DNA of 64,000 bases from Alphaproteobacteria bacterium (lineage in GTDB: Bacteria > Pseudomonadota > Alphaproteobacteria > CAAGCB01 > CAG-977): assembly GCA_017480385.1 (NCBI GenBank), contig JAFVAT010000005.1:85205-149204 (forward strand), given 5' to 3'. The notes below the pieces were generated by a model. The model saw only the letters and a list, made by a program, of their open reading frames with translations. It was not told the origin of the DNA and made no database searches. Position numbers and translations under genes: made by a program. Shown here one piece after another: positions 1 through 16,650 of this stretch (its first letter is position 1; every line of letters starts with the position of its first letter).

Positions 1-324
1 TTCATCATCGGCGTTGCGTGATGCGCGTCAATCGCCGCCTGATTTTCCCAAGCGTCGATCAGCAGAACGGTTTCGGGATCGTTCGCCGGATAGAAGTATT
101 CGTAACGCAGGTTGCCCTTTTCGGCGCGGATTTTCGCCGCCGTGCCGCTTGCTTCCATTTCTTCGGCGAATTTGCGGGCATTGCCGTTTTCGCCCGTGTA
201 ATAAATATTAACCGTCAGGCTCATCGTTTTATTTTCCGCCTCCTTTTTCTCAAGCCATTTCGCCGTTCCCAAAAGAATCAGCGCGGCAAGTAAAAGACTT
301 GCTTTGATTGCTCTCATCTCATAC

Positions 325-1251
325 TCATTTCAGATATTTTTTCAAAAACGCCTTCATCAGCGCGGCAATTTCCCGATGATGAGATTCGAGCGCGAAATGC
401 CCGCTGTTCACAAAGCGGATTTCCGCATCCGGCAAGTCTTTTTTGAACGCTTCGGCACCCGCCGGAATGAAAGACGGATCGTTTTTTCCCCATACGGCAA
501 GCAAAGGCGGCTGATGATCGCGCATATATTTTTGAAATTCGGGATAAAGCGCCACATTCGAGCGATAATCCAGAATCAAATCGTTCTGCATTTCCGCCCG
601 TTCGGGCATTTGCACATAAGCGTAGTCCAACGTGTAACCGTCGGGGCCGACGCTGTTTTCCGGCGTGCCGAACGTGTATTGTCCGATAATGGTGTCAAGC
701 GCGTATGCCGAAGCGTATTGTTTGCGCAATTCGGGGGTCGGCTTTTTCCAGTATTCTTTCCGCGCTTCCCACTTTTTGCCCAAGCCTTCTTCATAGGCGT
801 TTCCGTTTTGAGAAACAATCGCCGTAATGCGTTCGGGGTGCCACATCGCCAGACGGAACCCGACCGGAGCGCCATAGTCGAACAGATACATCGCGTATCG
901 CTTCAATCCGAGCTTTTCCGTGAAAGCGTCAACCGTTTTTGCCAGATTGTCGAACGTGTAAGCGAACTTATCCCTTGAAGGCGCCTCCGTTTGGCCGAAG
1001 GACGGAAAATCGGGCGCAATCAGATGATATTCGTCCGCCAGTTCCGGCATCAGTTCCCGAAACATATGACTTGCGCTCGGAAACCCGTGCAGAAGCAGAA
1101 TCGCCGGTTTATCGGGATTTCCCGCTTCACGGTAAAAAACGCGGACACCGTTTGCATCAACCGTTTTATACCGCACCTGTCTTTCTTCCGCCCGCACTAT
1201 TGTCGTCATCAGCATAAAAATCCCGAACAAAAGAATAAGTCTTTTCAGCAT
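325..1251 (-). CDS. alpha/beta hydrolase (epoxide hydrolase/haloalkane dehalogenase-like), N-terminal signal peptide
   Basis: 308-aa ORF; hydrophobic N-terminus then 'LLLHGFPSASHMFRELMPEL...APDFPSFG' (HG oxyanion motif of alpha/beta hydrolase fold). Confidence 0.7.
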   Translation of the reverse strand: MLKRLILLFGIFMLMTTIVRAEERQVRYKTVDANGVRVFYREAGNPDKPAILLLHGFPSASHMFRELMPELADEYHLIAPDFPSFGQTEAPSRDKFAYTFDNLAKTVDAFTEKLGLKRYAMYLFDYGAPVGFRLAMWHPERITAIVSQNGNAYEEGLGKKWEARKEYWKKPTPELRKQYASAYALDTIIGQYTFGTPENSVGPDGYTLDYAYVQMPERAEMQNDLILDYRSNVALYPEFQKYMRDHQPPLLAVWGKNDPSFIPAGAEAFKKDLPDAEIRFVNSGHFALESHHREIAALMKAFLKKYLK

Positions 1252-1257
1252 GTTAAC

Positions 1258-2295
1258 TCAAGCTTCGTCCAAATCGACCAAAACATACTTGTCGCTTCCC
1301 ATGCCGAGCTCCCTCATATAGGAAAGCTGGCGCAGGCCGTGACGCGTTTCAATGCGTTCGCGCAGTTCCTTGCTTTTTTCGTTCAGCCGGTACACCAAAT
1401 CGACGGAAGCCTGATCAACCGCCAGAATATCATCGCTTGCCAGAATGCCGATATCGGGCGTCACAACCGGTTCGGCGTGAATCCCTTCGCAGTCGCAGCT
1501 GACGGACATATTCCGCAGCACGTTAACAAACGTAATGTTTTTGCCGAAATGATCGACCGTCGCTTTAGTCGATTCCGTCATGCGTTCCATGAACTCGTCC
1601 TGAGAAATGCTCCATTGTCCCTGCCCCGGATACGTATGAATCATCGCCTTGCCGATTCGCCCGTCCGCCATGCCGATCCCGATGTTTTTATTGGAACCGC
1701 CGAAGCCGCCCATTGTATGGCCCTTAAAATGCGTTAAAACCAATAGGGAATCGTATCTGTCCGCATGAGAACCAACGGACATTTCCTTGAAATATTTCCC
1801 GCCGGCAACCGGCCACATCCGCGTGCCTTCTTCGTCCATAATATCGACCGGCGCGAATGTCCAGCCGTTGACCTTTAACGTTTCCCGATGCTGTTCGGTC
1901 GTATAGCGGTCGCCTTCGTAATAGGTGTTCGTTTCAACGATTGTCGCGTCCGGAATATCGCTTTCAATCAGCTGTTTGACCCAGGCGGCGGGAATGATAT
2001 TCGGACCGTTTTTTTCTCCGGTATGCAGTTTGACAGCAATTTTGCCCTGCATATTCTGATTTACTTTCCGGTAAATCTTCTTCAATCCTTCGGGGCTTAA
2101 ATCCCGCGTAAAGTAAACGGTCGAAGCTTTGCCCTGCCGTTCTTCAACGGGAATATTAACCGAACTGCCCAAAGGTTCCGCCGCTTTTGCCATATCCTTT
2201 TCCATTTTTAATCCTTTCGCCAACGCCGCCTTGCCAAACGCGGTCAAAGCGACCGCCGCGCCCGTCAAACCTTTTACAAAATCGCGTCTGTTCAT
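1258..2295 (-). CDS. DUF362-domain protein with twin-arginine (TAT) signal
   Basis: 345-aa ORF; N-terminus 'MNRRDFVKGLTGAAVALTAF' is a TAT motif; 'CDCEGIHAEP' Cys motif; 7 nt downstream of the next gene. Confidence 0.55.
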   Translation of the reverse strand: MNRRDFVKGLTGAAVALTAFGKAALAKGLKMEKDMAKAAEPLGSSVNIPVEERQGKASTVYFTRDLSPEGLKKIYRKVNQNMQGKIAVKLHTGEKNGPNIIPAAWVKQLIESDIPDATIVETNTYYEGDRYTTEQHRETLKVNGWTFAPVDIMDEEGTRMWPVAGGKYFKEMSVGSHADRYDSLLVLTHFKGHTMGGFGGSNKNIGIGMADGRIGKAMIHTYPGQGQWSISQDEFMERMTESTKATVDHFGKNITFVNVLRNMSVSCDCEGIHAEPVVTPDIGILASDDILAVDQASVDLVYRLNEKSKELRERIETRHGLRQLSYMRELGMGSDKYVLVDLDEA

Positions 2296-2316
2296 CTTAT
2301 CCCTCTTCCAACGAAA

Positions 2317-2877
2317 TCACAATTGTTCCGCCGCCCATTTTTTCAGGTCTTCCGCAGAAACGCCGGCAGGAAAACGCTTGCCTTCAAGAACTTTCGCTTT
2401 CGGTGCCAAAGCCTGCATATTCTTGCCCGATTCACCGATCGGACTGACGCCGGAAGTCGCAAATGGAACAACCGTTTTGCCTGAAAAATCATACGCTTCC
2501 ATAAACGTGTCGATAATGGAGGGTTCTCTGTACCACCAGATCGGGAAGCCGACGAAAACGACATCGTATTGCGCTATGTTTTCGACTTTGGAAGCAATCG
2601 CCGGACGGCTGTTTCTGTCGTTCATTTCAACCGTGCTCCGGCTTTGCTTGTCCGTCCAGTCCAGATCCGCGTCCGTATAAACCTGCGCCGGTTTGATTTC
2701 AAACAAATCCGCGCCGACCGCTTCGGATAATCTGTTTGCCACGCCCGCCGTCACGCCGCTGGCGCTGAAATACGCGACCAGCATTTTTTTACCGCTCATA
2801 TTTGTTTCCTCCGCTTTTGTCTGAAAAGGCGTTAAAAAGGTTAAAACCGTTAAAAACGCCGATAAAAGTTTTTTCAT
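2317..2877 (-). CDS. exported flavodoxin-like protein
   Basis: 186-aa ORF; Sec-type signal 'MKKLLSAFLTVLTFLTPFQTKAEE' followed by flavodoxin-like 'KMLVAYFSASGVTAGVA...FVGFPIWW'. Confidence 0.6.
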   Translation of the reverse strand: MKKLLSAFLTVLTFLTPFQTKAEETNMSGKKMLVAYFSASGVTAGVANRLSEAVGADLFEIKPAQVYTDADLDWTDKQSRSTVEMNDRNSRPAIASKVENIAQYDVVFVGFPIWWYREPSIIDTFMEAYDFSGKTVVPFATSGVSPIGESGKNMQALAPKAKVLEGKRFPAGVSAEDLKKWAAEQL

Positions 2878-3506
2878 TAAACCGCTCCTATATTTTTGCC
2901 TAATTCATAGGCCTGTTGAGGATACTTTGTTTTGTTCACCGCTCCGACCGGCCAGACGCCCGAAGCGATCACCCGCCCCGCGTCCGTCCAGCCCAAATAG
3001 TTCAACAACGTTTCGTAATGCGAAATAATCGGCTGCGCTTCTTTGGCCGCCGTATCCGCGTACGTCATCAACAAAACGGCCTTTTTCGGGCGGTGAATCC
3101 GTCCGTTGATCGCGTAAAAGCGGTCGATTACGGTTTTTAACTGCGCCGAAATGCCGAAATAATACATCGGCGTAACAAATGCGACCGCATCGGCGTCAAC
3201 AATATGTTCGCGCACAAAATTGAAATCGTCGCTAAAGACGCACGGCCCGTCCATACCGCAATGATTGCAGGCGATACACGGGTGAACCTTTTTAAACGCC
3301 GCGTCAAAACGTTCGATATGATGACCGGCCTCTTCAGCGCCCTTGATAAAATTATCCGCCAAAGTCGCCGAATTGCCGTTTTTCCTCGGACTGCCCGTCA
3401 GAACCAGTATTTTCATTTGCTTTTCTCCGCCCGCTTTTAAAGCCTTCGGCAACATCGCCAACGCCCCCGCCGCCAAAGTGCCTTTGATAAAATCGCGCCT
3501 GTTCAT
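2877..3506 (-). CDS. NADPH-dependent FMN reductase / iron-sulfur flavoprotein family, TAT signal
   Basis: 209-aa ORF; 'MNRRDFIKGTLAAGALAML' TAT signal; 'KILVLTGSPRKNGNSATLAD' flavodoxin-like NADPH-FMN-reductase fold; start overlaps stop of flavodoxin gene (ATGA). Confidence 0.6.
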   Translation of the reverse strand: MNRRDFIKGTLAAGALAMLPKALKAGGEKQMKILVLTGSPRKNGNSATLADNFIKGAEEAGHHIERFDAAFKKVHPCIACNHCGMDGPCVFSDDFNFVREHIVDADAVAFVTPMYYFGISAQLKTVIDRFYAINGRIHRPKKAVLLMTYADTAAKEAQPIISHYETLLNYLGWTDAGRVIASGVWPVGAVNKTKYPQQAYELGKNIGAV

Positions 3507-3543
3507 TATTCCCCCGCTTTCAAACGACCCTTTATCTTCGCAT

Positions 3544-3566
3544 TTAAAGTCAGCTTTAAGTCAAGA
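3544..3566 (-). promoter_or_regulatory. palindromic operator-like motif TTAAAGtcagCTTTAAGTCAAG overlapping a CTTGAC -35-like box, 38-60 nt upstream of the flavoprotein operon start
   Basis: Perfect 6-4-6 inverted repeat TTAAAG/CTTTAA; near-identical copy at 10954-10975. Confidence 0.5.
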
Positions 3567-4814
3567 AAAAAGTTCAAAAACGGCGTTCAGCCTTTTCCGC
3601 CTCAGCATATCGCCGCGTTTTTCGGGCAAAGTCGCGGCTATTTCTTCCGCACTCAGCCGGATTGCCGCCGATTGTTTATAAACAGCGGAAACAAGGTTCA
3701 AAGCGCCCGCGAAATTCTTTTTCCATTCATTATCTGCGCGGTTGCAATATCTGTCCGCCAGACAGGCGATCAGGAACAATTCCGGTTTGTTTTCCGTCTG
3801 CTTGTAAATATCCCAAATAAAGTCGAATTTTTTGGCTTTTCTCATTTCGGAAAAATGATGAAAGCGCATATGGTTTTCGCAGACGAACCGGCACAGCTTC
3901 GCCGTAAAGGACGGCAGTTTCAGCCGCGCGCAAAAATCCATCCTCAACAGCTCCGCGCCCAGTTTGTCATGCCCGATGTGACGGGGGAATTCCGCCGGAT
4001 CGGTCAGCGGCTTGCCGATGTCGTGCAGTAAAACCGCCCAGTAAAGCGATTGCCTGGCCTGTTTGTTTAAATTGAAAAAGTCAACGTTCCTGTCCAGCCA
4101 TTTCAGCGCGCTGACGACGTGGCCGCCCGTGTTGCCTTCGGGGTGGTATTGCGGCTTTTCGGGACAGGAAAAAAGCATTTCCAAAGCGGGACAATAGGCC
4201 TCCAATGCTTTTAAAGCGTGCAAATTTTCGACAAACGCCCCGCCCGATTTCGCATCAAAGGCCTTGATAAATTCGGCGTAAAACCGTTCCGCCGGCAAAG
4301 AGGAAAGATCGCCTGATTCAGCCAAATGCACACATTCCGTCCGCGTCCGTTCCGTCAAGGTAAAGCCGAGCGTCGCCGCAAACCGCGCCGCCCGAACCGC
4401 GCGCAAAGGGTCTTCGCCGAAATGAGCCGGATCGACAACCTCCAATTCGCGGCGTTCCAAATCCTGCAAAGCCCGTTCGCTTACCCCCGTTTTGACAAGA
4501 TTTTCCGCTTCGTCCATAACAAGGCAATTCACGGTAAAATCGCGGCGCAACAAGTCTTCGTCAAGCGTTACGTCTTTGGAAAAGTCGAACGCAAACCCCC
4601 GATGACCTTTGCCCGTTTTGATGTCTTTGCGGGCTAGGGCGTGTTCCTCTTTGGTGTCGGGGTGCAGGAAAACGGGAAAGCCCGCCCCGACGCGCTGAAA
4701 TCCGACGGCCAGCATTTCCGCTTCGGTCGCGCCGACAACGACCCAATCCTTGTCTTCGGGCGCTTTTCCCAACAGCTTGTCCCTGACATATCCGCCGACA
4801 ATATAGCGTTTCAT
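3561..4814 (-). CDS. cca: CCA tRNA nucleotidyltransferase (poly(A) polymerase head + HD domain)
   Basis: 417 aa; 'YIVGGYVRDKLLG' nucleotidyltransferase head, 'RDFTVNCLVMD', HD motif 'LLHDIGK'. Confidence 0.8.
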   Translation of the reverse strand: MKRYIVGGYVRDKLLGKAPEDKDWVVVGATEAEMLAVGFQRVGAGFPVFLHPDTKEEHALARKDIKTGKGHRGFAFDFSKDVTLDEDLLRRDFTVNCLVMDEAENLVKTGVSERALQDLERRELEVVDPAHFGEDPLRAVRAARFAATLGFTLTERTRTECVHLAESGDLSSLPAERFYAEFIKAFDAKSGGAFVENLHALKALEAYCPALEMLFSCPEKPQYHPEGNTGGHVVSALKWLDRNVDFFNLNKQARQSLYWAVLLHDIGKPLTDPAEFPRHIGHDKLGAELLRMDFCARLKLPSFTAKLCRFVCENHMRFHHFSEMRKAKKFDFIWDIYKQTENKPELFLIACLADRYCNRADNEWKKNFAGALNLVSAVYKQSAAIRLSAEEIAATLPEKRGDMLRRKRLNAVFELFS

Positions 4815-5323
4815 TGGCTTTGCTTTTTCAAAAAGTCCAGAACAACCTGCGCCGTTTGTTCCGGCGTTTGATCACCGTTATCAATGATTAAATCCGAAAA
4901 ATCGGGATCATGACAGTGTTCTTCGTACATCTGCCGGATACGGGAAAGTTCCCATTCGGTCAGCTCCCGCGTTCCCCTGTTCATCAGGCATTTTTCCAAA
5001 GACGGCGATAACGTAATATTAAAAAAGTGCGTCTGCCCGTCTTCGTAACTTTTCCAGCGTTCGTAATTTTTCCGTACGATCGGATAGGCAAAGATCAAAA
5101 AGCGGCAAGAGTTGTCCGCCTTTTTTTGCCAAATAATCTGTTCCAGCCGGTCGACGCGTTCCCGCCAGCCGTCTTCCATTGACAACCCGAGCCGATCTTC
5201 CTCCTCATCGGACAAAAGATCGTCCACTTCAATAAACGACGCGTCAGGCAGGCTTTTGACCAAAAGCTTTGAAACGGTCGTCTTGCCCGCATTGATCGGG
5301 CCGTTGATGTTTAAAATAAGCAT
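4811..5323 (-). CDS. small P-loop NTPase/kinase-like protein
   Basis: 170 aa; Walker A 'NGPINAGKTT'; 4-nt overlap with cca start. Confidence 0.5.
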   Translation of the reverse strand: MLILNINGPINAGKTTVSKLLVKSLPDASFIEVDDLLSDEEEDRLGLSMEDGWRERVDRLEQIIWQKKADNSCRFLIFAYPIVRKNYERWKSYEDGQTHFFNITLSPSLEKCLMNRGTRELTEWELSRIRQMYEEHCHDPDFSDLIIDNGDQTPEQTAQVVLDFLKKQSQ

Positions 5324-5505
5324 TTTACAAGGTTACAAAAAAATCCGGCATAAATCAACACGGCGCAAAACCGCTTCATTTCACTTCCCGCGGTAAAAGC
5401 TTATACCGCTCCGCCGAACCCGCCCCGTTTGACAACCAGCACGACAGAACGTCCCAGATACGGTCAACAAAAAAGAAGCGTTAAAAAATCCCTCTTTTTG
5501 TAAAA

Positions 5506-6096
5506 TTATTCTTCCTTTTGCCAGACATTGATAACTTCCCCGATATACATCACATGAGGACTGATTTTGATTTTTTCATACAGTTCCGTCGCTTTATCGT
5601 CCAACAGTTCTTTTTGGAAAGGAATTTTGTAAATCGTTTTGCATTCGATTGCCAGATTCCCTTCTTTAAAAACAGGATTGCCGAGTTCCGTAAATTCCGG
5701 TGTCAAGCCGGCGGCTTTCAGCTTGTCACCGTCGCGTCCCGAATGTGACCCTATATACGCCAAAGCTTTCCGTTGCTCCTTGGGAAAACCAACAACGGTA
5801 AAGTATTCGTTTCTATCCATAAAGTCATTCGTGTAACGTTCGGGTGCGACATAAACGGTTACAACCGGTCTTTTCCATAAAACGCCGATGCTTCCCCAAC
5901 CGATCGTCATCGCGTTCATCTTGTCTTTATTGCCGGACGCCAGAGCCGCCCAATCTTTCTGAAACAGAGTGACGGGATTTTTAACGTCCGCCAAAGAAAT
6001 TTTTTTCCACCTCTCCTCCATTACCGATTTGCCGTCTTCGGCATACGCGGCGGAAGAAAACATCAAAAGTGTTATTATCAGAAAATTCAGCATCAT
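5506..6096 (-). CDS. exported flavin-reductase-like (FMN-binding split-barrel) protein, paralog A
   Basis: 196 aa; signal peptide 'MMLNFLIITLLMFSSAAYA'; ~80% aa identity to ORF 9299..9883. Confidence 0.6.
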   Translation of the reverse strand: MMLNFLIITLLMFSSAAYAEDGKSVMEERWKKISLADVKNPVTLFQKDWAALASGNKDKMNAMTIGWGSIGVLWKRPVVTVYVAPERYTNDFMDRNEYFTVVGFPKEQRKALAYIGSHSGRDGDKLKAAGLTPEFTELGNPVFKEGNLAIECKTIYKIPFQKELLDDKATELYEKIKISPHVMYIGEVINVWQKEE

Positions 6097-6105
6097 AGCC
6101 GTTCC

Positions 6106-7062
6106 TTACAATTTTTCATTAAAGAATTTTGTCAGCTTGTCCGCAATCTGTTCAACGTATTCCGGCACAAAGTATGTCTGAATATGCGTTGCGCCTTTGA
6201 TTTTGAACAATTCCTTGTCCTTTGTTCCGGTCGCTTTGGCAAAGGCGTCCTCGGTCATGTACAGAGAATCCGCCTTTTCGCCGGCAATCATCAATAAAGG
6301 CTGATTGATCAGCTCGATCTGATCGGTCGCGTCCCACGTCATCAGCTCCATCAGACTGCTTTCCGTATATTCAAACGTGGAATTCGGATGAGCATATGTC
6401 CGCATATAATATTGAAAGCCCTCGCGGTACAAATCAAACGGCAGTTTGGCGGCCTGTTCGTCTGTAACGCCCGCCATGGAACCGACCAGCCTTCAATCGT
6501 CCGATTGGGCGGTTTTCAGCGTGTACTCGCCGCCGCCGCAAATGCCCGGTATTCCGATCCGGTCGGCATCAACACCGGCGAATGTCGATATGTAATCAAT
6601 CATACCGTGAATGGATTCTTCCCGCAAAGTCGGTTTGTCGGTATGCCTCGGTTCGCCTTCGGACGCCCCCTGATAAGCCGCGTCCGCCGCAATCGTGATA
6701 TAGCCCTGTTCCGCCAGTTTTTGCGCGTAAAATCCAGCAACTTGTTCTTTCACGCCGCCGTTCAGATGCGCCACCGCGATCGCCGGATATTTTTTGTCCT
6801 TGTCGTAATTCGCGGGCAAGTAAACGTTCGCGGCGATTTTCAATCCATTCTGCATATACGTTACGGGCTTGATATTGACTTGCCCCGCGACGTTTTGAGC
6901 TATCGCCCCGTCATAAACCAGCCCGAACGGATTGCCCGCCGTCGAAACGCAGCCGCCGGATAAAAGAGCTGCTCCTATCACTGTCATTTTCAAAAATCCT
7001 TTCATTGCGTGTTTCCTTATTTCACCACTTTTTTCCAGAATTGAACGGCTTTGTCCGTCCAA
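6106..7062 (-). pseudogene. dienelactone-hydrolase-family lipoprotein interrupted by a single in-frame TGA (6493-6495)
   Basis: ORFs 6493..7062 and 6106..6477 are in the same frame, separated only by TGA plus 5 sense codons; lipoprotein signal 'MKGFLKMTVIGAALLSGGC'; Cys-nucleophile motif 'GICGGG'; likely start at 7005 or 6987. Confidence 0.45.
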
Positions 7063-7949
7063 CCCTCGGCGTTTGTCCCTGTGCCAAGACCGAATCCGTG
7101 TCCCACATTCGGATACAAATGAAAATCCGTTTCAACTCCCATTTTGTTCAACCGCTCGGATTGTCTTTGCATTCCGCGCGGATCGGCAATGCCGTCATAT
7201 TCGCCGACCGCCATAAAGACCGGAACGGTTTCGGGCGTGTAATCGCTGTGTCCGGTATAATTAACCACGACCATTGCCGGCTTCGGCAAGTCCGCCCCGC
7301 CGAACGCTTTTGCGCCATAAGTGCCGATATAAGCCGCCATGCGCGCGCCGGCGGAATCCCCCCAAACAGAATAGTTTTCCGTTGAAACTTCAAGCTTTTT
7401 ATGATGTTCAAAAATATATGTCAGAGCGTTGGCTAAATCCTCAACCGCCCAATTAGCCGAACCGCCCCGATATTTCAGCACAAAAGCGTTATAGCCCTTT
7501 TTGCTTAAATCCAACGCGATCGGAAACCCGCCGTGAAGGCTTCCGACATAAACAAATCCGCCGCCGGGACAAATGACGGCGAACGGCGCATCAGGCTTTC
7601 CTTTAAAGAAAAACAAGCCGGTATGTTTCTGTCTGTCATCGCCGTCAGGATAAAAGTTGTAAAACGTCCGATGCGTTTTAAGGTAATTCAGCCCCTTGAG
7701 CACGTCATTCATTCTGATTTCGGAAAGCCACGGCAGAATACTGCCTATGTTTTTGATTTGAGTCTCCGGCGGGTTGCGGCTTATCTCGTCCCACGGCAGG
7801 ATTTTATCGGCATAGCCTTTAAATTCCGGCGCGTTCAAGATGTCCCGAATCGTGCTGTTTTCATCAAACATTTTGATTTCCTCAGCCGCCGCTGATCCGA
7901 TTGCGCTTAATAGTGTCAATAAACAAAATCCCCAAAACCGCATTGCCAT
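7017..7949 (-). CDS. alpha/beta hydrolase fold-3 esterase/lipase (GDSAG motif), signal peptide
   Basis: 310 aa; 'MAMRFWGFCLLTLLSAIGSAAA' signal; 'HGGGF', 'GDSAGARMAAY' hormone-sensitive-lipase-family motifs. Confidence 0.7.
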   Translation of the reverse strand: MAMRFWGFCLLTLLSAIGSAAAEEIKMFDENSTIRDILNAPEFKGYADKILPWDEISRNPPETQIKNIGSILPWLSEIRMNDVLKGLNYLKTHRTFYNFYPDGDDRQKHTGLFFFKGKPDAPFAVICPGGGFVYVGSLHGGFPIALDLSKKGYNAFVLKYRGGSANWAVEDLANALTYIFEHHKKLEVSTENYSVWGDSAGARMAAYIGTYGAKAFGGADLPKPAMVVVNYTGHSDYTPETVPVFMAVGEYDGIADPRGMQRQSERLNKMGVETDFHLYPNVGHGFGLGTGTNAEGWTDKAVQFWKKVVK

Positions 7950-7967
7950 ATTCGCACATCATTCCCA

Positions 7968-8585
7968 TCACTGTTTATCCTTTTCGCCCGAATAATTTTG
8001 CAGAACAGGCCCGACGACCGTATCAAAGAAACGGTCGCTCCACCGGCTTGGCACAAAAACGCCGTCCGACATACACCAGCAGGTCATCATGCCGTAAAGT
8101 TCGGAAATAATGATCTGCGTTAAAAGATCAACAGGCGTGTTTGCGTTCAGCTCATTTTTCCGGACGGCCTGTTCCAAGATGCTTTTTAACATATCGACAT
8201 CAAACCGCCATTTGGCGTTATCCATATTTTCCGGCGCCTTGCCCGGATCGATCACGCCGCGTATCCATTCACGGCAAATGTTTATGCCGTAACGTTCGAC
8301 TTCCATATTAAATTGTTCAAAGTAATAGCGCATGCGTTCCGTGAACGGTTTGTTTTTCATGTTTTGCATATTCCGCTCTATCTTTTTGAACAGTCCGCGG
8401 CAAATTTCGTAACCGATATCTTCCTTATGCTTAAAGTGCGTATAAAAAGTGCCCTTCGCACAACCGCAGGCCTGCGTTATTTCTTCCACAAACAGATCGT
8501 CAAAGCTTTTTTTCTCCAACAGCTTAATCGTTGCCTCAATCAATTTTTGCTTTGTTTTAAGAGCGTTTTCCTGTCGTTTGGTCAT
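7968..8585 (-). CDS. TetR-family transcriptional regulator
   Basis: 205 aa; N-terminal HTH 'FVEEITQACGCAKGTFYTHFKHKEDI'. Confidence 0.8.
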   Translation of the reverse strand: MTKRQENALKTKQKLIEATIKLLEKKSFDDLFVEEITQACGCAKGTFYTHFKHKEDIGYEICRGLFKKIERNMQNMKNKPFTERMRYYFEQFNMEVERYGINICREWIRGVIDPGKAPENMDNAKWRFDVDMLKSILEQAVRKNELNANTPVDLLTQIIISELYGMMTCWCMSDGVFVPSRWSDRFFDTVVGPVLQNYSGEKDKQ

Positions 8586-8622
8586 TATTCTTTCTCCGTA
8601 TTTGATAAATATACGTTTTCAA

Positions 8623-8650
8623 TGACTCAGAGTCAATGACTTGAAGTCAT
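8623..8650. promoter_or_regulatory. tandem operator palindromes TGACTCaGAGTCA (8623-8635) and ATGACTTgAAGTCAT (8636-8650) upstream of tetR
   Basis: Two perfect inverted repeats 38-65 nt upstream of the tetR start codon. Confidence 0.55.
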
Positions 8651-8660
8651 CTTTATCAAA

Positions 8661-8701
8661 AACAACAAAAAAACCGGAGCAACGTTTTTAACATCGCTCC
8701 G
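8661..8701 (-). terminator. intrinsic terminator after flavin reductase gene
   Basis: Minus-strand hairpin CGGAGC(n15)GCTCCG followed by T-run. Confidence 0.5.
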
Positions 8702-8722
8702 ATCAATTTGAGGCTCGGAATC

Positions 8723-9286
8723 TTATTTTTTCAAAGCCAGTCCGTCATGGAAAGCCCGTCCGACCTTGTCGCCCAGAACGCGGTAAACGTGAGCCGCGCC
8801 GTCATAGGAAATCGGTCGAAGCTTGCCCAAATCGACGTTTCCTTTTTCGTCAAGAACGCTTTCGTCCGCCGCCATATTGACGACCCGTCCGACAACGCGG
8901 TAATCGCCGTCCTCTTCTTCCATTTCAATGACTTCGCATTCCAGAGTCAGCGGAAATTCCTCGATCACGGGCGCATCGACAAATTCGCTTTTCGTCACGT
9001 GAACGCCCGCTTTTTCGATTTTGTTGACGTTATTACCGCTTTCAACGCCGAAATAATCGGCAACCAGCATCGTTTCCGGCGTAGCAAATGACAAAGTGAA
9101 CGCCCGTTTCAGCATCAGATTGTCCGTTGTCTTGTGCGGCCCGAGCAAAAAAGTTACTTCGTGATAGCCGCACTGCGTCCCCCACGCGGCGTTCATCGCG
9201 TTCGGCACGTCGTTTTCGTCATACGTCGCGATAATAAATACGGGCAACGGCGCAACGACCGTCTTGTTTCCTAAATTCTTCTTCAT
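8723..9286 (-). CDS. flavin reductase-like domain protein (cytoplasmic)
   Basis: 187 aa; 'VVAPLPVFIIATYDENDVPNAMNAAWGT' is typical of the flavin reductase (DIM6/NTAB) family. Confidence 0.6.
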   Translation of the reverse strand: MKKNLGNKTVVAPLPVFIIATYDENDVPNAMNAAWGTQCGYHEVTFLLGPHKTTDNLMLKRAFTLSFATPETMLVADYFGVESGNNVNKIEKAGVHVTKSEFVDAPVIEEFPLTLECEVIEMEEEDGDYRVVGRVVNMAADESVLDEKGNVDLGKLRPISYDGAAHVYRVLGDKVGRAFHDGLALKK

Positions 9287-9298
9287 CGTTTTTTTCCT

Positions 9299-9883
9299 TT
9301 ATTTTTTCCGCCAAACGTTCACGACTTCACCGATATACGTCACGTGCGGACTGATTTTTATCCTTTGATATAAATCCTGCGCTTTGTCGTCCAACAGCTC
9401 TTTTTTAAACGGCTCTTTATAAATGATTTTGCATTCGATCGCCAGATTGCCCTCCTTAAAAACGGGATTGCCCAGTTCGGTGAATTCCGGCGTTAATCCG
9501 GCGGCTTTCAGCTTGTCGCCGTCCCGCCCCGAATGCGTTCCGATATAAGCCAGAGCCTCCCTTTTCGATTCGGGAAAGGCAACAACTGTAAAATAGTCGT
9601 TCCTGTCCATAAACTCGTTCGTATAGCGTTCCGGCGCAACATAAACCGTCACGATCGGCCTTTGCCACAAAACGCCGATCGTTCCCCAGCCGATAGTCAT
9701 CGCATTCATGCTGTCTTTGTTTCCCGCCGCCAAAGCCGCCCAATCCTTGTGAAACAAAGCCACCGGATTTTTAACGTCCTCAATTGAAATTTTCTGCCAT
9801 TCCGGTCCCATTTTCCGCTCCTGTGCCTGTGCTGTTCCCGATAAAACAAAAATCAGGAAAAACAAGAAATAAATCCGCTTCAT
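9299..9883 (-). CDS. exported flavin-reductase-like protein, paralog B
   Basis: 194 aa; signal 'MKRIYFLFFLIFVLSGTAQA'; ~80% identical to 5506..6096. Confidence 0.6.
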   Translation of the reverse strand: MKRIYFLFFLIFVLSGTAQAQERKMGPEWQKISIEDVKNPVALFHKDWAALAAGNKDSMNAMTIGWGTIGVLWQRPIVTVYVAPERYTNEFMDRNDYFTVVAFPESKREALAYIGTHSGRDGDKLKAAGLTPEFTELGNPVFKEGNLAIECKIIYKEPFKKELLDDKAQDLYQRIKISPHVTYIGEVVNVWRKK

Positions 9884-9892
9884 TGATTTTTC

Positions 9893-10918
9893 CTATTTCA
9901 ATTTATTGTAATCAGAATCGCCGACTTCTTCCAGCCATTCGGTCGAAGCGCCTTCAGCCGGAACGCTCATCGCGATATGCGTGAACCAGCTGTCCTTCGC
10001 CGCGCCGTGCCAATGCTTGACTTCGGCGGGAATATGGACGACATCGCCGAGGTGCAGTTCCTGTGCAGGTTTGCCCCATTCCTGATACCAGCCGCGCCCC
10101 GCCGTCACCAGCAAAATCTGACCGCTCTTGTGATGAACATGCCAGTTGTTGCGGCACTTCGGTTCAAAGGTCACGTTCGCAATGCCGACTTCCTCTTTAT
10201 TCAGCGGCTGTAAATAGCTTGTCCCCTTGAAGTATTTGGCATAAGCCATGTTTTCCTGCCCGAAACCAAACAAAATGTCCTGCGCGGCAGCCTTTTGCGC
10301 GACATTCAGGATTTCCGCCACCTGTTCATCGGTCAACCCGTTATGCTTGCCAACCGCAATATGACTGTTCAGCTGGCTTTCGACGCCGTTACGTACGGAA
10401 AGCATCGCGATCGTCGCCACTTCTCTGGTCTGCCAATCCACATTGTCGCGCGCGAAAATGTCGCCGAACAAATGCGCTTTCAGATATTCGTCGATCGCCG
10501 GCGCGAAATCAAACAGAGGCCCTTTAACCTCCCGTCCCGTCAGCTTTGTCTGATTCGCCGCGCCGTATTCCAAAGCCGTTCCTTTTGGCTTAGCGGAAGG
10601 CAAGCTCCCCTGTTCATCCTTGTTTCCGCGTTCGTTAACAACCGTCATCAACGTGCCCAAAGCGTTTAAGGCCCTCGGGAATCCACAGTAAGCGTAAGCC
10701 TGCGTCAGAATTTCCTTAAACTCGTTGACCGTCACACCGTTATCCAAACCGTTGATCAAAGCCTGTTTCAGCCCTTTTTGATCGCCTTTCGCCGTATAGG
10801 CTGCAACCTCGGCGATTGTTTTTTGTTTCGCGGTCAAAGCTCCGTTTGCCATTGCGTTTCCTCCCGTAAAAAGAATAAGCGCGCCCAGAAACAGCGCAGA
10901 TAAGTTTCTATTCGACAT
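9893..10918 (-). CDS. carboxymuconolactone decarboxylase (CMD) domain + cupin domain fusion, signal peptide
   Basis: Likely start at 10918 (MSNRNLSALFLGALILF...); cupin motif 'HHKSGQILLVTAGRGWYQEWGKP...GDVVHIPAEVKHWHGA'. Confidence 0.55.
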   Translation of the reverse strand: MSNRNLSALFLGALILFTGGNAMANGALTAKQKTIAEVAAYTAKGDQKGLKQALINGLDNGVTVNEFKEILTQAYAYCGFPRALNALGTLMTVVNERGNKDEQGSLPSAKPKGTALEYGAANQTKLTGREVKGPLFDFAPAIDEYLKAHLFGDIFARDNVDWQTREVATIAMLSVRNGVESQLNSHIAVGKHNGLTDEQVAEILNVAQKAAAQDILFGFGQENMAYAKYFKGTSYLQPLNKEEVGIANVTFEPKCRNNWHVHHKSGQILLVTAGRGWYQEWGKPAQELHLGDVVHIPAEVKHWHGAAKDSWFTHIAMSVPAEGASTEWLEEVGDSDYNKLK

Positions 10919-10953
10919 CTTGCACTCCTTGAGTTTTTTTATTAGATTAGCTT

Positions 10954-10975
10954 TTAAAGCTGACTTTAAGTCAAG
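10954..10975 (-). promoter_or_regulatory. operator-like motif TTAAAGctgaCTTTAAGTCAAG with embedded TGACTTtAAGTCA palindrome, upstream of the CMD-cupin operon
   Basis: Matches the 3544-3566 motif and the tetR operator half-sites. Confidence 0.5.
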
Positions 10976-11029
10976 CATTTTTTTAACTGCCGCTGAAAAA
11001 GCATATCAAAGCTAAAACTCTTCTAAAGA

Positions 11030-11593
11030 GTTGTGGTTTGACGCAAAATAATCATCTGCTATAATTCCGTCTGCATATAATTCGACAATCCCCGGCGTTG
11101 CGGTTTGACGCAAAATAATCATCTGCTATAATGGGAGCGGGGAGGAATCACCCGCTCTTTACGTTGCGGTTTGACGCAAAATAATCATCTGCTATAATGA
11201 ATGATCAAGGATTCGGCGGTGTTGATTAGTTGCGGTTTGACGCAAAATAATCATCTGCTATAATCGGACGGGGGATGATAAATATCTCCGCGTTGTTGCG
11301 GTTTGACGCAAAATAATCATCTGCTATAATTCAAGCGCATTATCGATGTCGATGCATAAGTTGCGGTTTGACGCAAAATAATCATCTGCTATAATCAAAG
11401 TCCTTAAAAATGAGACGTAACGGCAGTTGCGGTTTGACGCAAAATAATCATCTGCTATAATTCTTGACCAGCTCTAAAGTCAGTCAAAAAAGTTGCGGTT
11501 TGACGCAAAATAATCATCTGCTATAATTAGGAGCAGTAAGGATGAAGGTTTGCGTTTGTTGCGGTTTGACGCAAAATAATCATCTGCTATAAT
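11030..11593 (+). CRISPR. CRISPR array, 9 x 36-bp repeats (GTTGCGGTTTGACGCAAAATAATCATCTGCTATAAT), 8 spacers of 29-31 bp
   Basis: Repeats start at 11030 (degenerate, C5T), 11097, 11163, 11229, 11295, 11360, 11426, 11492, 11558; unique spacers; each repeat carries TTGACG-N16-TGcTATAAT on the + strand. Confidence 0.95.
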
Positions 11594-11599
11594 ATCAAT

Positions 11600-11632
11600 G
11601 AAAAAAGCCTTTGAAAACAAAGGCTTTTTTCT
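11600..11632. terminator. bidirectional intrinsic terminator between CRISPR array and cas2
   Basis: AAAAAAGCCTTTGaaaaCAAAGGCTTTTTT: 8-bp stem, A-run 5' and T-run 3'. Confidence 0.7.
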
Positions 11633-11643
11633 TTATTTTTCGT

Positions 11644-11973
11644 TTAAAAAAGTGTCAGCTGCTCCGGTTTTTCCGATATCAAAACAGGTTTTCGATTCCG
11701 AAATGTGATAATGTCGGCAAATTGTTTGTCCGTAAAAAACAAAATGCTGACGTTACCGTCCGGCGGAATCTGCTTTTTTATTCTGTTTATAAAAGGCGTC
11801 GCCATTTCCCGCGTGCCGCAAAAGCGGAAATAAACCGAAAACTGGCTCATTTCAAAGCCTTCGTCCAACAAATAATTCCGAAACGCCGTCGCCCGTTTGC
11901 GTTCTTCGGGTTCCGCCACGGGCAAATCGAACATTACCATCATCCACATCAGATTGTATCCCGTCACCGACAC
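11644..11973 (-). CDS. cas2: CRISPR-associated endoribonuclease Cas2 (GTG start)
   Basis: 109 aa; 'MSVTGYNLMWMMVMFDLPV' Cas2 N-terminus; begins 1 nt after cas1 stop. Confidence 0.9.
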   Translation of the reverse strand: MSVTGYNLMWMMVMFDLPVAEPEERKRATAFRNYLLDEGFEMSQFSVYFRFCGTREMATPFINRIKKQIPPDGNVSILFFTDKQFADIITFRNRKPVLISEKPEQLTLF

Positions 11974-11974
11974 A

Positions 11975-12883
11975 TTAAAGGTTCCACAGATTTTTTCCGG
12001 TCATCGCTTCGGGCAAGTTCAGACTGTCCGCTTCCCCCAAAACGCATTTTTGCAAAGAAACCGCCAGATCGGAAATCAGATACCCGACTTCACATTCCCG
12101 ATCGCCCGTTTTCACCGTACGGGACAGCAACGCGACAAGCCGTTTTTTCACTTCCGGCGTAACAGAGCCGAACTCGTCCTCATCCGTCATACGATAGACG
12201 CAAAAATCAACCAGAGGGCGGAACGGTTCCATCAAATCGTCCGCCAGACGCATCGCATTGTATTGATTTTGATGATGTATCCCCAAAGACGGATGCAATC
12301 CCGCCCCCGTAATCGCCCGAACAACCGAGGATCGTAAAATCGTATAACCGTAATTCAGCATCGCGTTAATGCCGTCCTGCGCCCTATCCCTGCGGAAATC
12401 CTTGCCGAACAACGTTTGAAAATAATATTTTGCCCCCTGCCCTTCCAAATTTTTGGGATCGCCGTTTTTGACCTGCTTTGCCATATAACGCAGAGACGCG
12501 TCCGGCTTTGAACAGGTTTTCAAAACTTCCGCCTGTTGCGTCAGTTTGGCTTGAATGATGTCTTTCCAATAACGGTCGGCGGCGGATTGCTTCATTCTAG
12601 CCTGAGCCGTCAGAATGTCGCCCTGCAAATGGTGGTTTTCCAGAGGGATCATAATCGAAGCGGGAACGTGATTCGCTCCGCAAACAACGAAAGGCGCATT
12701 CTGTTCCGCCAACCGGACAAGCAGATTGTTTGAATAGGTCAAGCCGTGCGCGTTGGCAATCACCGCCCCGATCTGATCGATCGGCACGCGCCCGACCTCT
12801 TGCGCGTTTTCATATACGACCATAAAACCGTGATCGACCGCCAGATAGCGATTATCCTGCGTGATTTCGATGATTCTATCCAT
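11975..12883 (-). CDS. cas1: CRISPR-associated endonuclease Cas1 (type II)
   Basis: 302 aa; Cas1 fold motifs; start overlaps cas9 3' end by 8 nt. Confidence 0.95.
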   Translation of the reverse strand: MDRIIEITQDNRYLAVDHGFMVVYENAQEVGRVPIDQIGAVIANAHGLTYSNNLLVRLAEQNAPFVVCGANHVPASIMIPLENHHLQGDILTAQARMKQSAADRYWKDIIQAKLTQQAEVLKTCSKPDASLRYMAKQVKNGDPKNLEGQGAKYYFQTLFGKDFRRDRAQDGINAMLNYGYTILRSSVVRAITGAGLHPSLGIHHQNQYNAMRLADDLMEPFRPLVDFCVYRMTDEDEFGSVTPEVKKRLVALLSRTVKTGDRECEVGYLISDLAVSLQKCVLGEADSLNLPEAMTGKNLWNL

Positions 12884-15800: not shown

Positions 15801-16076
15801 CGCTTTGCGTTCCGCTTCGTCCTGCGGCATCAAACCGTATTTGATCAGCCTGTTCATCAGCGTTTCGCGACGCATCACAAAACGGTCGCGGCGTTTGCGC
15901 ATTCCTCTGGCCGTCCGGCGGGCGACCGCAAGCGGCTCTTTCGTTTTCGAATCCCGTCCGTCCGAAAAAATACGGACACCGAAATTTTCAAAGCGGTACG
16001 GCGCGCCGTCTTTTGTTTCGATGATGCTCCAGCCTAACGACGTTTCGCCCAAATCCAATCCCAAAACATAACGCAT
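12876..16076 (-). CDS. cas9: Cas9, type II-C
   Basis: 1066 aa; RuvC-I 'LGLDLGETSLGW', Arg-rich bridge helix 'RRTARGMRKRRDRFVMRR', HNH 'EIEHLLPFARSYSDARTNKVISCRACNREKGN', RuvC-III 'HHALDAF'; no csn2 or cas4 in the locus. Confidence 0.95.
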   Translation of the reverse strand: MRYVLGLDLGETSLGWSIIETKDGAPYRFENFGVRIFSDGRDSKTKEPLAVARRTARGMRKRRDRFVMRRETLMNRLIKYGLMPQDEAERKALEMLDPYFLRAKALDEKLTPYELGRALFHINQRRGFKSNLKTDKKDAETGAMKTAIAETRKRMTEAGARTLGEYLYLMNKDKTSTQDFVPVRAKSIVVKSKASYPLYPDRAMYEDEFRQIMTKQGLSKEIEDDLFHIIFNQRPLKQPELGLCQFEEGERRAYCAYPAFQQSRLLQQINQLKILYDDDERFLTPEEREVLYRFTAKDFSALDKKKRTLTWSAAKKLLKPFGVNPKVSFNLESEKRKGLDADTTAAQLADESCFGKEWFSFDREKQNEIVALLLNAQDESKLIEELKDKYALSPEQAEAVAHTSLEDGTASLSLKALGKINPFLREGQPYHQAVESAGYTFSLKTKGTLPEYYNTFINPETGDVYDELPYYGEAMPKAVIGGTNAAADKDFPEKYWGKINNPTVHIALNQVRKLINELVKRYGHPESIVVELARELKLGKKAKDELNKLQTENTKDNDRIAKELERLGVKNSYDNRMKYKLWEDSSDDSSQRCCPFCGKPINFEHLFSDEFEIEHLLPFARSYSDARTNKVISCRACNREKGNRSPWEAFHADEKRWNEILGRVENFSLKHDEKKNRAKKFREDAFQDLDDVLARMLTDTQYMARVARQYLCFAANPSKVWGIPGQLTAKLRHHWGLESLFPEDQKDRTDHRHHALDAFIVACTGRGTLQKYATERRDYSTQMPQEKAPHLPYPEFRLRELQDAFDRMVISHKPDHGNPQKAIQEGKTVAKLHEETYYGFAGEGDKKRTWKLIQRVPVTEFKTEADLDIIIDQAGTADKIRALLDGKDKSEHEAIIQSYFADRNTRKVRTYRERNKNVILPFKDKNGKPYRYAIYGGNAYAEIYCPDRGKNAGKWQIEIIPNYCAHQKDFVPKWRHTDAHAKLIMRLHIDDMVAYEKDGETIIARVKKMTGILFYLRPHLIAKEEADKLSWAASAEQFRLHNGRKITVTIDGRVIDPKRPEGQADG

Positions 16077-16149
16077 TGAAAGAAAACTCCTTAAAAATTG
16101 TTTCTAAAAATATTGACATACTTTACAAATATGTGACAACTTATATCTA

Positions 16150-16246: not shown

Positions 16247-16333
16247 TGCGGTTTTAGCGAGATTCATCTTGACGAAACAGGCTTTTGAAGTTAAAAGAAA
16301 AGCTCTGGATTTTTGTTTAAAGGAAATTGTGTT

Positions 16334-16633: not shown

Positions 16634-16650
16634 TCGCTGCCGCAAGAATT

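Follow-up and report, generated by a model that had tools for sequence, protein, structure and literature searches.

Predicted exported flavoproteins and hydrolases in a TetR-linked gene cluster of an uncultured rumen alphaproteobacterium

A co-oriented group of genes for flavoproteins, alpha/beta hydrolases and accompanying enzymes occupies one end of a 64,000-nucleotide stretch from an uncultured rumen alphaproteobacterium (assembly GCA_017480385.1, contig JAFVAT010000005.1, positions 85,205 to 149,204), and most of its products begin with what look like signals for export from the cytoplasm. The whole 64-kb stretch is called the window here; L-numbers denote related loci and P-numbers homologous proteins. 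Within positions 1-10978 of the window, 14 genes lie on the minus strand, comprising 13 full open reading frames (ORFs) and the truncated ABM gene, and are transcribed in the order CMD-cupin, FlaRedB, FlaRedCyt, TetR, ABH3, ABH2, FlaRedA, P-loop, CCA, FMNred, Fld4, DUF362, ABH1 and ABM. The left window edge is not the end of the cluster, which runs on into ABM, a gene for an ABM-domain protein with a hydrophobic N-terminus. Nine of the 13 genes, with ABM as a tenth that is cut by the window edge, begin with a general secretory (Sec), twin-arginine translocation (Tat) or lipoprotein signal. All 13 consecutive minus-strand ORFs of a first-pass annotation of this DNA are present where it had placed them, except for the start of the CMD-cupin gene, and the protein families that it had assigned were each confirmed by Pfam or NCBIfam profile matches; it had listed 11 products, and the other two of the 13 genes encode a CCA-adding enzyme and a P-loop protein. 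The genes are as follows, with a slash at the predicted signal cleavage sites.

1-317, minus strand: ABM, antibiotic-biosynthesis-monooxygenase-like; only the 5' part is in the window, with an N-terminal hydrophobic segment and then an internal Met.
325-1251, minus strand: ABH1, Abhydrolase_1 family (Pfam, 109 bits), with predicted Sec signal MLKRLILLFGIFMLMTTIVRA/EE.
1258-2295, minus strand: DUF362 protein with a LarA-like fold and a predicted Tat signal (MNRRDFVKG...ALA/K).
2317-2877, minus strand: Fld4, Flavodoxin_4 family (PF12682; Pfam, 223.8 bits), with predicted Sec signal MKKLLSAFLTVLTFLTPFQTKA/EE.
2877-3506, minus strand: FMNred, FMN_red family (PF03358; Pfam, 83.8 bits), with a predicted Tat signal and the Isf-type CX2CX2CX5C motif CIACNHCGMDGPC.
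3561-4814, minus strand: CCA-adding enzyme (Pfam PolyA_pol and HD).
4811-5323, minus strand: P-loop kinase-like protein (Pfam).
5506-6096, minus strand: FlaRedA, flavin-reductase-like split barrel (Pfam Flavin_Reduct, 62.3 bits), with predicted Sec signal MMLNFLIITLLMFSSAAYA/ED.
6106-7005, minus strand: ABH2, DLH-type lipoprotein (Pfam DLH) with lipobox LSGGC and a GxCxG nucleophile.
7017-7949, minus strand: ABH3, BD-FAE/Abhydrolase_3-type esterase (Pfam), with predicted Sec signal MAMRFWGFCLLTLLSAIGSAAA/EE.
7968-8585, minus strand: TetR-family regulator (Pfam TetR_N, PF00440).
8723-9286, minus strand: FlaRedCyt, flavin-reductase-like, without a signal (cytoplasmic); the Pfam match begins at residue 13.
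9299-9883, minus strand: FlaRedB, flavin-reductase-like split barrel (Pfam, 59.3 bits), with predicted Sec signal MKRIYFLFFLIFVLSGTAQA/QE.
9893-10918, minus strand: CMD-CMD-cupin fusion (Pfam CMD and Cupin_2), with predicted Sec signal MSNRNLSALFLGALILFTGGNAMA/NG; it starts at M21 of a longer ORF.

The full ABM protein, read from the metagenome contig L001, is 141 amino acids long and begins with MRAIKASLLLAALILLGTAKW; in a tblastn search, the ABM protein of L090 matched window positions 3-239 at 88.6% identity.

Export signals were called from motifs, from a home-made crude N-terminal heuristic and from comparison with homologues. The heuristic yields false positives, for example FlaRedCyt and membrane proteins, and its counts are to be read as rough ones. 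FMNred and DUF362 share the N-terminus MNRRDF[IV]KG, and the Pfam TAT_signal profile gave 29.8 bits for FMNred, above its cut-off of 22.7, and 17.1 bits for DUF362, below it. Fld4, FlaRedA, FlaRedB, ABH1, ABH3 and CMD-cupin each begin with charged residues that lead into a hydrophobic core and an AxA-type site. Signals were found in 10 of the 14 cluster genes vs at most 9 of the 42 other window ORFs (Fisher p ~0.001), a comparison that rests on the crude heuristic and counts membrane proteins too.

The signals recur in homologues. By the same heuristic, a hydrophobic N-terminal signal is present in 110 of the 120 best Fld4 homologues, in which the sequence drifts while the pattern MKK-hydrophobic-xAxAEE stays, and most Fld4 loci of Alphaproteobacteria have a Shine-Dalgarno (SD) site in front of the ATG that opens the signal peptide. 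The best FlaRed homologues carry a signal in 109 cases out of 120, and 57 of these 109 are lipoprotein-type and Bacteroidales-like (Bacteroides sp. K03, Duncaniella), again as called by the heuristic. The type of signal follows the phylum, being Sec in Alphaproteobacteria and a lipobox in Bacteroidales and Succiniclasticum; in the latter, FMNred has a Tat-plus-lipobox signal and DUF362 is a lipoprotein. Homologues of CMD-cupin with a signal are found in Alphaproteobacteria, Gastranaerophilales and Elusimicrobia, together with a lipoprotein form in Treponema. Orthologues of FMNred in L006 (87% identity) and L102 (73%) have a Tat signal, and the ABH1 orthologue of L090 (80% identical) keeps a signal peptide of other sequence. 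The ABH3 signal appears to be the least secure of the set because there is no close orthologue for comparison: in a protein library clustered at 50% identity, the nearest cluster representative is just 53% identical, with homology from about residue 28, and a metagenome scan with ABH3 found no relatives. The ABH3 relatives have Sec, lipoprotein or Tat signals or none.

Exported fusion proteins provide a further line of evidence. In L095/L096, the gene of a signal-bearing FlaRed is directly preceded by one whose product joins a Sec signal, an alpha/beta hydrolase and Flavodoxin_4, and P0366 is a lipoprotein in which Flavodoxin_4 is joined to an ABH3-like domain. These are two independent exported Flavodoxin_4-hydrolase fusions, since the hydrolase is Hydrolase_4-type and N-terminal in one (L095 5619-6950) and BD-FAE/ABH3-type and C-terminal in the other. 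They fix the Flavodoxin_4 domain outside the cytoplasm, a localisation that we infer for the window proteins themselves. The conservation in homologues, the SD sites before the signal ATG, the switching of signal type by phylum and the exported fusions together decide, for most of the genes, that the export signals are genuine, as the first-pass annotation had supposed. Its caveat that the N-termini might be start-site artefacts was not borne out, since homologues keep their signals while the sequence drifts, and a signal type that changes with phylum cannot result from such an artefact. The phenomenon is not confined to Alphaproteobacteria, as exported forms also occur in Bacteroidales, Negativicutes, Elusimicrobia, Treponema and Gastranaerophilales. 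Full-text literature searches brought up no account of flavodoxins that are exported or periplasmic, in line with its remark that no such module was known to be described for alphaproteobacteria, and no description of a Tat-exported Isf was found among the literature matches listed.

The Fld4 gene also carries traces of how its signal may have arisen. An internal Met lies just after the signal in Fld4, FMNred, DUF362, FlaRedA, FlaRedB, ABH3 and ABM. In Fld4 it is Met27 (window 2797-2799, minus strand), and the signal-less homologues of Firmicutes, Elusimicrobia and Treponema, which are 66-77% identical to the mature part of Fld4, start exactly at its equivalent. The AEE that follows the Fld4 cleavage site represents the old ribosome-binding site in translated form (GCG GAG GAA). 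When the window was compared with equivalent sites in loci L005-L050, an SD-like 4-mer was present before the internal Met in 17 of 18 Fld4 loci vs 6 of 83 other Met codons, although the loci are related and their independence is thereby overstated; a GAG codon occupies the internal SD site in 20 of 28 cases vs 50 of 199 elsewhere, in statistics that likewise ignore locus kinship. The internal Met has been lost in some Fld4 homologues (L021, L045, L082). As the internal Met is the start of the signal-less homologues and AEE corresponds to the old SD site, the signal was grafted upstream of an existing cytoplasmic gene, so that a cleavable Sec signal of 22 residues now stands before the ancestral start of Fld4. 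The retained internal start could mean alternative initiation yielding a cytoplasmic isoform, translational pausing or a recent origin.

The individual proteins are clear members of their families. Fld4 scores above the curated cut-offs of both Pfam (223.8 vs 24 bits) and the NCBIfam flavodoxin model NF005501 (233.9 vs 198), its residues 27-181 align with PDB 3KLB (E=3.5e-50), and the segments YFSxSGVT, GFPIWWY and FATSG are conserved; the loops YFSxSGxT, GFP(I/V)WW and ATSG are taken by us to be the FMN-binding ones. The Fld4 start codon overlaps the FMNred stop in TAATG. An HmuF-type haem-binding flavodoxin (PMC10404700) was also considered for Fld4, whose PDB matches were 3KLB-type flavodoxins only. 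Proteins P0096, P0099 and P0101-P0109 (L097-L099), which are at a guess from Firmicutes, are Flavodoxin_4 proteins in which an N-terminal membrane anchor takes the place of a signal that is cleaved; a nitroreductase is paired with them, and a flavodiiron gene lies alongside. The CX2CX2CX5C motif in the translation of FMNred corresponds to the compact CX2CX2CX5-7C motif for a 4Fe-4S cluster that is defined for iron-sulfur flavoprotein (Isf; PMC3164229).

The three proteins of the Flavin_Reduct family (PF01613) score 62.3, 60.8 and 59.3 bits against a cut-off of 27, and FlaRedA and FlaRedB (P0122) are 75% identical. An AlphaFold2 model of FlaRedB (predicted local distance difference test score 88.6) is predicted to adopt the FMN-binding split-barrel fold, with 3HMZ, 3ZOC and 3BNK as top Foldseek matches at a probability of 1.0 and 1USF also matched. 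The structural matches include split barrels crystallised with hydroquinone or p-hydroxybenzaldehyde (3ZOC/3ZOD). The cupin of CMD-cupin resembles manganese hydroxynitrile-lyase-type cupins (PDB 4BIF/4UXA) at 120.6 bits, under the NCBIfam cut-off of 140. By Pfam and NCBIfam, the families nearest to ABH1 are lactonase/dehalogenase-type hydrolases, and ABH3 lies near feruloyl/acetyl-esterase families. The count of three alpha/beta hydrolases, one of them a lipoprotein, is right as to the families, while the lipoprotein is broken: ABH2 is interrupted by an in-frame TGA at 6493-6495, a codon that aligns with Thr in intact homologues and paralogues. The metagenome contigs L001 and L002 have this stop as well, which makes a read error improbable. 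ABH2 is probably a pseudogene. Selenocysteine insertion or read-through at this codon was considered as well; given the alignment with Thr, the gene was treated as a pseudogene.

The DUF362 protein belongs to the same Pfam clan as LarA and has a LarA-like fold. A DUF362 profile search against PDB sequences gave no LarA alignment on which its invariant residues H193, K203 and H220 could be mapped, or by which the resemblance of their spacing to what we take to be that of LarA, H174/K184/H200, could be confirmed. In L090, genes for LarB, LarC and a LarE-like protein lie about 3.5 kb downstream of the DUF362 orthologue in the same gene cluster; in L067 and L125 LarBCE adjoin NapGH without DUF362, and no LarB, LarC or LarE was found in the 64-kb window.

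The TetR gene appears to link the transcription units of the cluster, and its homologues, 57-63% identical, lie inside the Fld4/CMD-cupin clusters of L090, L010 and L028. A palindrome, TGACTYNRAGTCA, occurs three times in the 64 kb, vs 0.21 occurrences expected, and all three copies are at promoters of the cluster; two of them, spanning 8623-8649, lie over the TetR promoter. The regulatory features are as follows.

3548-3564, minus strand: degenerate, nearly identical predicted TetR operator/-35 box TTGACTTAAAGCTGACT before FMNred, overlapping the CCA stop codon.
8608-8649, minus strand: promoter-like site TTGACT-17-TATATT with palindromes TGACTCAGAGTCA and TGACTTGAAGTCA, the predicted TetR operator at the TetR promoter.
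8672-8704, minus strand: intrinsic terminator with a 15-bp stem and a T run, closing the CMD-cupin/FlaRedB/FlaRedCyt unit.
10961-10973, minus strand: third operator palindrome TGACTTTAAGTCA, lying over the -35 box in the promoter of CMD-cupin.

At the position equivalent to the FMNred box, L006 has an intact palindrome, TGACTTAAAGTCA. A strong terminator stands after FlaRedCyt and a promoter-like site before TetR, and the cluster has at least three transcription units. Because the operator palindrome is common to their promoters, we read these units as one TetR regulon with predicted operators. The position of the operator at 10961-10973, over that -35, also fixes the start of CMD-cupin at M21 (10918) and not at 10978, where the first-pass annotation had put the 5' end; the promoter, operator and SD site all lie inside the first 20 codons of the longer ORF.

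The cluster had been described as a single co-oriented run of 13 genes. A functional linkage is supported by the shared operator, the recurring families and the fusions, while a single unit is not, given the backbone genes, the three or more transcription units and the variable halves. The idea of one conserved operon was rejected after a tblastn comparison of all window proteins with 80 GTDB loci, as the complete order was found only in identical metagenome contigs; exact protein matches likewise came only from metagenome contigs with the same gene order. Judged by the NCBI names of identical and near-identical proteins and by the related GTDB loci, the DNA comes from uncultured rumen or gut Alphaproteobacteria. 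Synteny of the homologues, which had been put forward as a check, thus failed for the full order, yet the same families recur together in other alphaproteobacterial metagenome-assembled genomes, Elusimicrobia, Treponema and Succiniclasticum. The CCA and P-loop genes (3561-5323) have about 80% DNA identity and a conserved position in L005 and L007; they are chromosomal backbone, outside the module. In these two closest GTDB genomes, the region of rpmB (window 16239-16685, beyond cas9) abuts the P-loop or CCA gene (L005, 5138-5639; L007, 7849-8381), and therefore the window segment 5327-16238, from cas9 to FlaRedA, is absent from both. The segment holds cas9, cas1, cas2, a CRISPR array and seven cluster genes, and its joint absence means that the type II-C CRISPR-Cas system and the seven exported-enzyme genes share one variable insertion site. 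The content between CCA and dxs varies too, with Fld4 only in L007, an MBL-fold gene and Fld4 in L005, FMNred-Fld4-ABM in L006 and FMNred-Fld4-DUF362-ABH1-ABM in the window. By these sequence comparisons, the two cluster halves are separate variable insertions.

Some neighbouring features are recorded here as observations. The CRISPR array (11030-11600, nine repeats) lies between cas2 and the CMD-cupin gene, and each repeat contains a promoter-like site, TTGACG-16-TATAAT with an extended -10, on the plus strand, opposite to the cas genes; these sites look like the promoters that type II-C systems carry inside their repeats. Upstream of CCA in L005 (5639-6700), the P-loop kinase-like gene is tandemly duplicated, the copies being 62% and 84% identical to that of the window. 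In the Bacteroides-like loci L085-L088, an HxlR gene is divergent to genes for Lumazine_bd_2, FMN_red, FMN_red, a FlaRed lipoprotein and Lumazine_bd_2; the cluster adjoins an AraC regulator and an RND efflux system, and FlaRed is its only exported member.

A possible electron source was found in relatives. The L090 cluster encodes TetR, Fld4(SP), Tat-Fer4, FMN_red, ABM(SP), Fld4b(SP), AKR, FMN_red, SnoaL, SDR, CMD-cupin(SP), ABH1(SP) and DUF362, where SP stands for a Sec signal peptide, and continues with a 436-residue NapH-like protein, TatA, TatC, Tat-AKR/Fer4, LarB, LarC, a LarE-like protein, Tat-MBL and a NiCoT-like transporter. Its proteins are 85% (DUF362), 80% (ABH1), 75% (Fld4) and 57% (TetR) identical to those of the window. 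In the NapH-like protein, four transmembrane segments come with two CX3CP motifs and with Fe-S motifs on the cytoplasmic side; an internal KRRQLL motif and a fifth segment of weak hydrophobicity follow, and a polyferredoxin forms the C-terminal part. By this architecture it is a NapH-NapG fusion of the type for which joint insertion by Sec and Tat has been shown (Tooke et al., 2017, PMC5449189). A metagenome scan recovered 53 loci with the fusion, and TatA-TatC lie directly downstream in most contigs that are long enough. An operon type from the human gut (L102) unites NapGH, TatA and TatC with Tat-AKR/Fer4, with an Fld4 paralogue that bears a signal and with a Tat-Isf sharing 73% identity with the window FMNred, and in L093 NapGH-TatA-TatC stands beside a signal-peptide FlaRed. 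Other NapGH flanks hold CMD-cupin with FMN_red and Fld4, LarBCE with NiCoT, DUF362 (L130) or FlaRed (L140, L093). The NapH-NapG/TatA/TatC trio itself is located at 9936-12214 in L090, 2784-5174 in L093 and 8989-11123 in L102 and in about 40 further loci among L100-L148; it occurs in gut and rumen metagenomes and also in Gastranaerophilales (L067). Among the exported flavoprotein genes of the Succiniclasticum clusters L046, L051 and L078 there is just a distant (28%) TatC match.

On balance, we lean slightly towards viewing the cluster as the accessory genes of a TetR regulon, the products of which, mostly periplasmic, would hydrolyse or reduce diet-derived small molecules in this uncultured rumen alphaproteobacterium. 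The Tat route would serve the Isf-type 4Fe-4S/FMN flavoprotein and the LarA-like DUF362 protein, whose cofactors would be built in the cytoplasm, and the Sec or lipoprotein route would serve Flavodoxin_4, the two split-barrel proteins, CMD-cupin, the three alpha/beta hydrolases and ABM. With the Isf motif on a Tat protein, the choice of pathway would fit a cofactor logic in which Fe-S and possibly nickel-pincer enzymes go via Tat and the rest via Sec. Aromatic esters, quinones and other electrophiles would be hydrolysed, reduced or converted before reaching the cytoplasm, and an inducer bound by TetR would release expression. A gene elsewhere in the genome, accompanied by those for TatA-TatC, would supply the NapH-NapG fusion polyferredoxin; this would pass electrons to the Isf-like protein, which would hand them on to the flavodoxin and the flavin-reductase-like proteins. 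Isf proteins accept electrons from ferredoxin-type donors and reduce O2/H2O2. The linkage to NapGH and the Isf motif together make such a polyferredoxin-Tat-Isf-flavodoxin/split-barrel chain reasonable. The Sec-exported flavoproteins would need periplasmic flavin, for which the secretion of flavin cofactors by Shewanella for its periplasmic reductases, going by a title in the reference list of PMC8238504, offers a precedent. The families, the signals and their conservation, the common operator, the island character and, in relatives, the linkage to NapGH-TatAC and to hydrolase fusions are observed; where the proteins actually reside, how the Sec substrates come by flavin, which way the electrons travel and what compounds are acted on is what we infer here. 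The extracytoplasmic flavin-dependent redox or detoxification module of the first-pass annotation accordingly stays plausible insofar as orthologues of FMNred, Fld4, DUF362 and FlaRed adjoin NapGH and TatA-TatC, while the conduit is not in the window.

Several observations weigh against this view. A tblastn search found no NapGH, TatC or other membrane electron conduit in the 64-kb window, so that the electron source for this genome is an extrapolation from relatives. FMN_red and Flavin_Reduct enzymes usually take their electrons from NAD(P)H, which the periplasm does not contain. By the heuristic, 94 of 120 DUF362 homologues lack a signal (99 when identical repeats are excluded), including close alphaproteobacterial ones at 84-88% identity, and since the closest homologues are mostly signal-less, the localisation has been labile in evolution. 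Nearly all the Fld4 loci compared still have the internal Met and an SD site belonging to it, and cytoplasmic isoforms may arise too. One of the hydrolases (ABH2) is a probable pseudogene, the gene order of the whole cluster is not conserved, and the signals are predicted by motif, crude heuristic and comparison.

The main alternative to detoxification is respiration, in which the exported flavoproteins would act as terminal reductases or electron carriers while the cell conserves energy by respiring dietary or host compounds anaerobically, with quinol oxidation at the NapGH-like protein feeding them. The orthologues are indeed linked to a NapH-NapG polyferredoxin and TatAC, NapGH is a quinol dehydrogenase in nitrate respiration (PMC5449189), and large sets of exported flavin reductases have been described in gut bacteria (bioRxiv 10.1101/2022.12.26.521950). 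The reductase types of those systems, FAD_binding_2 or molybdopterin, are however not represented among the cluster proteins, the 64-kb window holds no quinone-linked component, gene content turns over rapidly, and surroundings with TetR, HxlR, efflux, nitroreductase and AKR genes typically go with stress and xenobiotic responses. The relatives have detoxification-like surroundings, with nitroreductase and flavodiiron genes, HxlR with RND efflux, or AKR, SDR and SnoaL. The enzyme types and these contexts therefore favour a detoxification-type periplasmic processing, and respiration is regarded as unlikely. A dual localisation, with an exported isoform from the upstream ATG, a cytoplasmic one from the retained ancestral start and the main function in the cytoplasm, is considered improbable. 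It would account for the internal Met in seven of the proteins, for the SD-like 4-mer and GAG frequencies in the Fld4 loci and for the signal-less homologues beginning precisely at that Met. The Met is nonetheless lost in L021, L045 and L082 and is lacking in the Bacteroidales lipoprotein forms, the Fld4 domain is internal in the hydrolase-Fld4 fusion, where it must follow the exported hydrolase, and the kinship of the loci makes the statistics overstate independence, so that retention may reflect a recent origin.

It is still harder to see the cluster as no module at all, that is, as unrelated accessory genes accumulated in two variable chromosome spots beside CRISPR-Cas. The absence of 5327-16238 from L005 and L007, the differing CCA-dxs content of L005, L006 and L007 and the confinement of the 13-gene order to identical metagenome contigs would be expected from such an accumulation; the operator common to the unit promoters, the recurrence of the same family combinations across many genomes and phyla, the gene fusions and the enrichment of export signals make it very improbable. 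Hardly credible is a start-site artefact, by which the hydrophobic N-termini would be untranslated and the enzymes ordinary cytoplasmic ones, even though a gene caller set downstream starts for ABH3 (284 amino acids) and ABH1 (296 amino acids) in L001 and internal Met/SD pairs are present. Over about 100 diverged homologue clusters, the frame, charged start, hydrophobic core and cleavage motif are kept with no stops or frameshifts, the Tat motifs are canonical RRxF[IV]K, the upstream ATG is preceded by an SD site and that of Fld4 is coupled to the upstream stop (TAATG), and other phyla have lipobox versions.

A wider and more tentative proposal is that the regulon of exported enzymes belongs to an undescribed periplasmic electron-transfer system of diderm anaerobes of the gut and rumen. 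Non-covalent flavoproteins (a Tat-exported Isf with flavodoxins and split-barrel proteins exported by Sec) would replace c-type cytochromes or ApbE-flavinylated proteins in it, would be fed by NapH-NapG with TatA-TatC and would pass electrons to a fast-changing, horizontally exchanged set of exported enzymes with dietary compounds as targets, namely reductases, hydrolases and one that is LarA-like and may be of the nickel-pincer kind; the signals would have come from an extension of cytoplasmic genes beyond their former ribosome-binding site. If this is true, whole subfamilies of flavodoxin, Isf and flavin-reductase-like proteins are periplasmic in abundant gut and rumen bacteria, though they are treated as cytoplasmic, and genome-based metabolic models of these uncultured organisms misplace redox enzymes. 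The proposal raises the question of how Sec-exported flavoproteins acquire their flavin and by what means they are reduced where NAD(P)H is lacking, and it offers a candidate system (NapGH fusion, TatAC, Tat-Isf and signal-peptide flavodoxin) by which anaerobes may handle plant or host xenobiotics before these enter the cell. It would also supply a clean natural case of signal peptides grafted onto cytoplasmic enzymes and a genomic lead on the function of DUF362.

Compared with known systems, mature Fld4 aligns end to end with 3KLB, one of the cytoplasmic Flavodoxin_4 proteins of gut anaerobes (PDB 3KLB, 4ICI, 4J8P), and differs from them by its added Sec signal of 22 residues. FMNred shares the FMN_red fold and the compact CX2CX2CX5-7C motif with Isf of Methanosarcina thermophila; known Isf proteins are cytoplasmic, whereas FMNred and its orthologues have a canonical Tat signal. 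The proteins of the cluster are thus clear members of Flavodoxin_4, Isf-like FMN_red and Flavin_Reduct, and the predicted export signals are what differs. The MhqR/YodB-type electrophile and quinone regulons of Firmicutes comprise repressor-controlled flavin-dependent reductases, DLH-type carboxylesterases and CMD/cupin-like enzymes, a similar mix; their enzymes are cytoplasmic and driven by NAD(P)H, whereas those described here mostly have export signals. The flavin-based extracellular electron transfer of Gram-positive bacteria, to which the cluster had been likened, does not fit: there is no ApbE/FmnB or FMN_bind (PplA-type) Pfam match in the 14 cluster genes, cas1, cas2 or the related loci whose gene tables were consulted, with Ndh2, EetA/B and DmkA not specifically searched for, and the likeness to the Listeria-type system is limited to flavins acting outside the cytoplasm.

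The ApbE-flavinylated extracytosolic electron-transfer systems, 'NapH-like' ones included (Meheust et al., 2021, PMC8238504), share the concept, in that extracytoplasmic flavoproteins are likewise wired to a NapH-like Fe-S membrane protein and combined in a modular way with varied enzymes. Their defining parts, ApbE and FMN_bind domains with covalent flavinylation, are missing from the cluster; ApbE and a secreted FMN_bind/DUF2271/DUF3570 target are absent from the cluster and from L001, L090, L093 and L085. The cluster flavoproteins belong to non-covalent flavodoxin-like and split-barrel families, outside the coverage of that study (PMC8238504). The dual Sec-Tat polyferredoxin NapGH (PMC5449189) is matched by the NapH-NapG fusion beside exported flavoprotein genes in L090, L093 and L102; in these relatives, TatA-TatC and proteins of Isf, flavodoxin and AKR type are encoded alongside the fusion in place of a nitrate reductase, and the fusion is absent from the window. 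On computational evidence, we regard the cluster as a variant of the extracytoplasmic redox modules fed by NapGH-type conduits.

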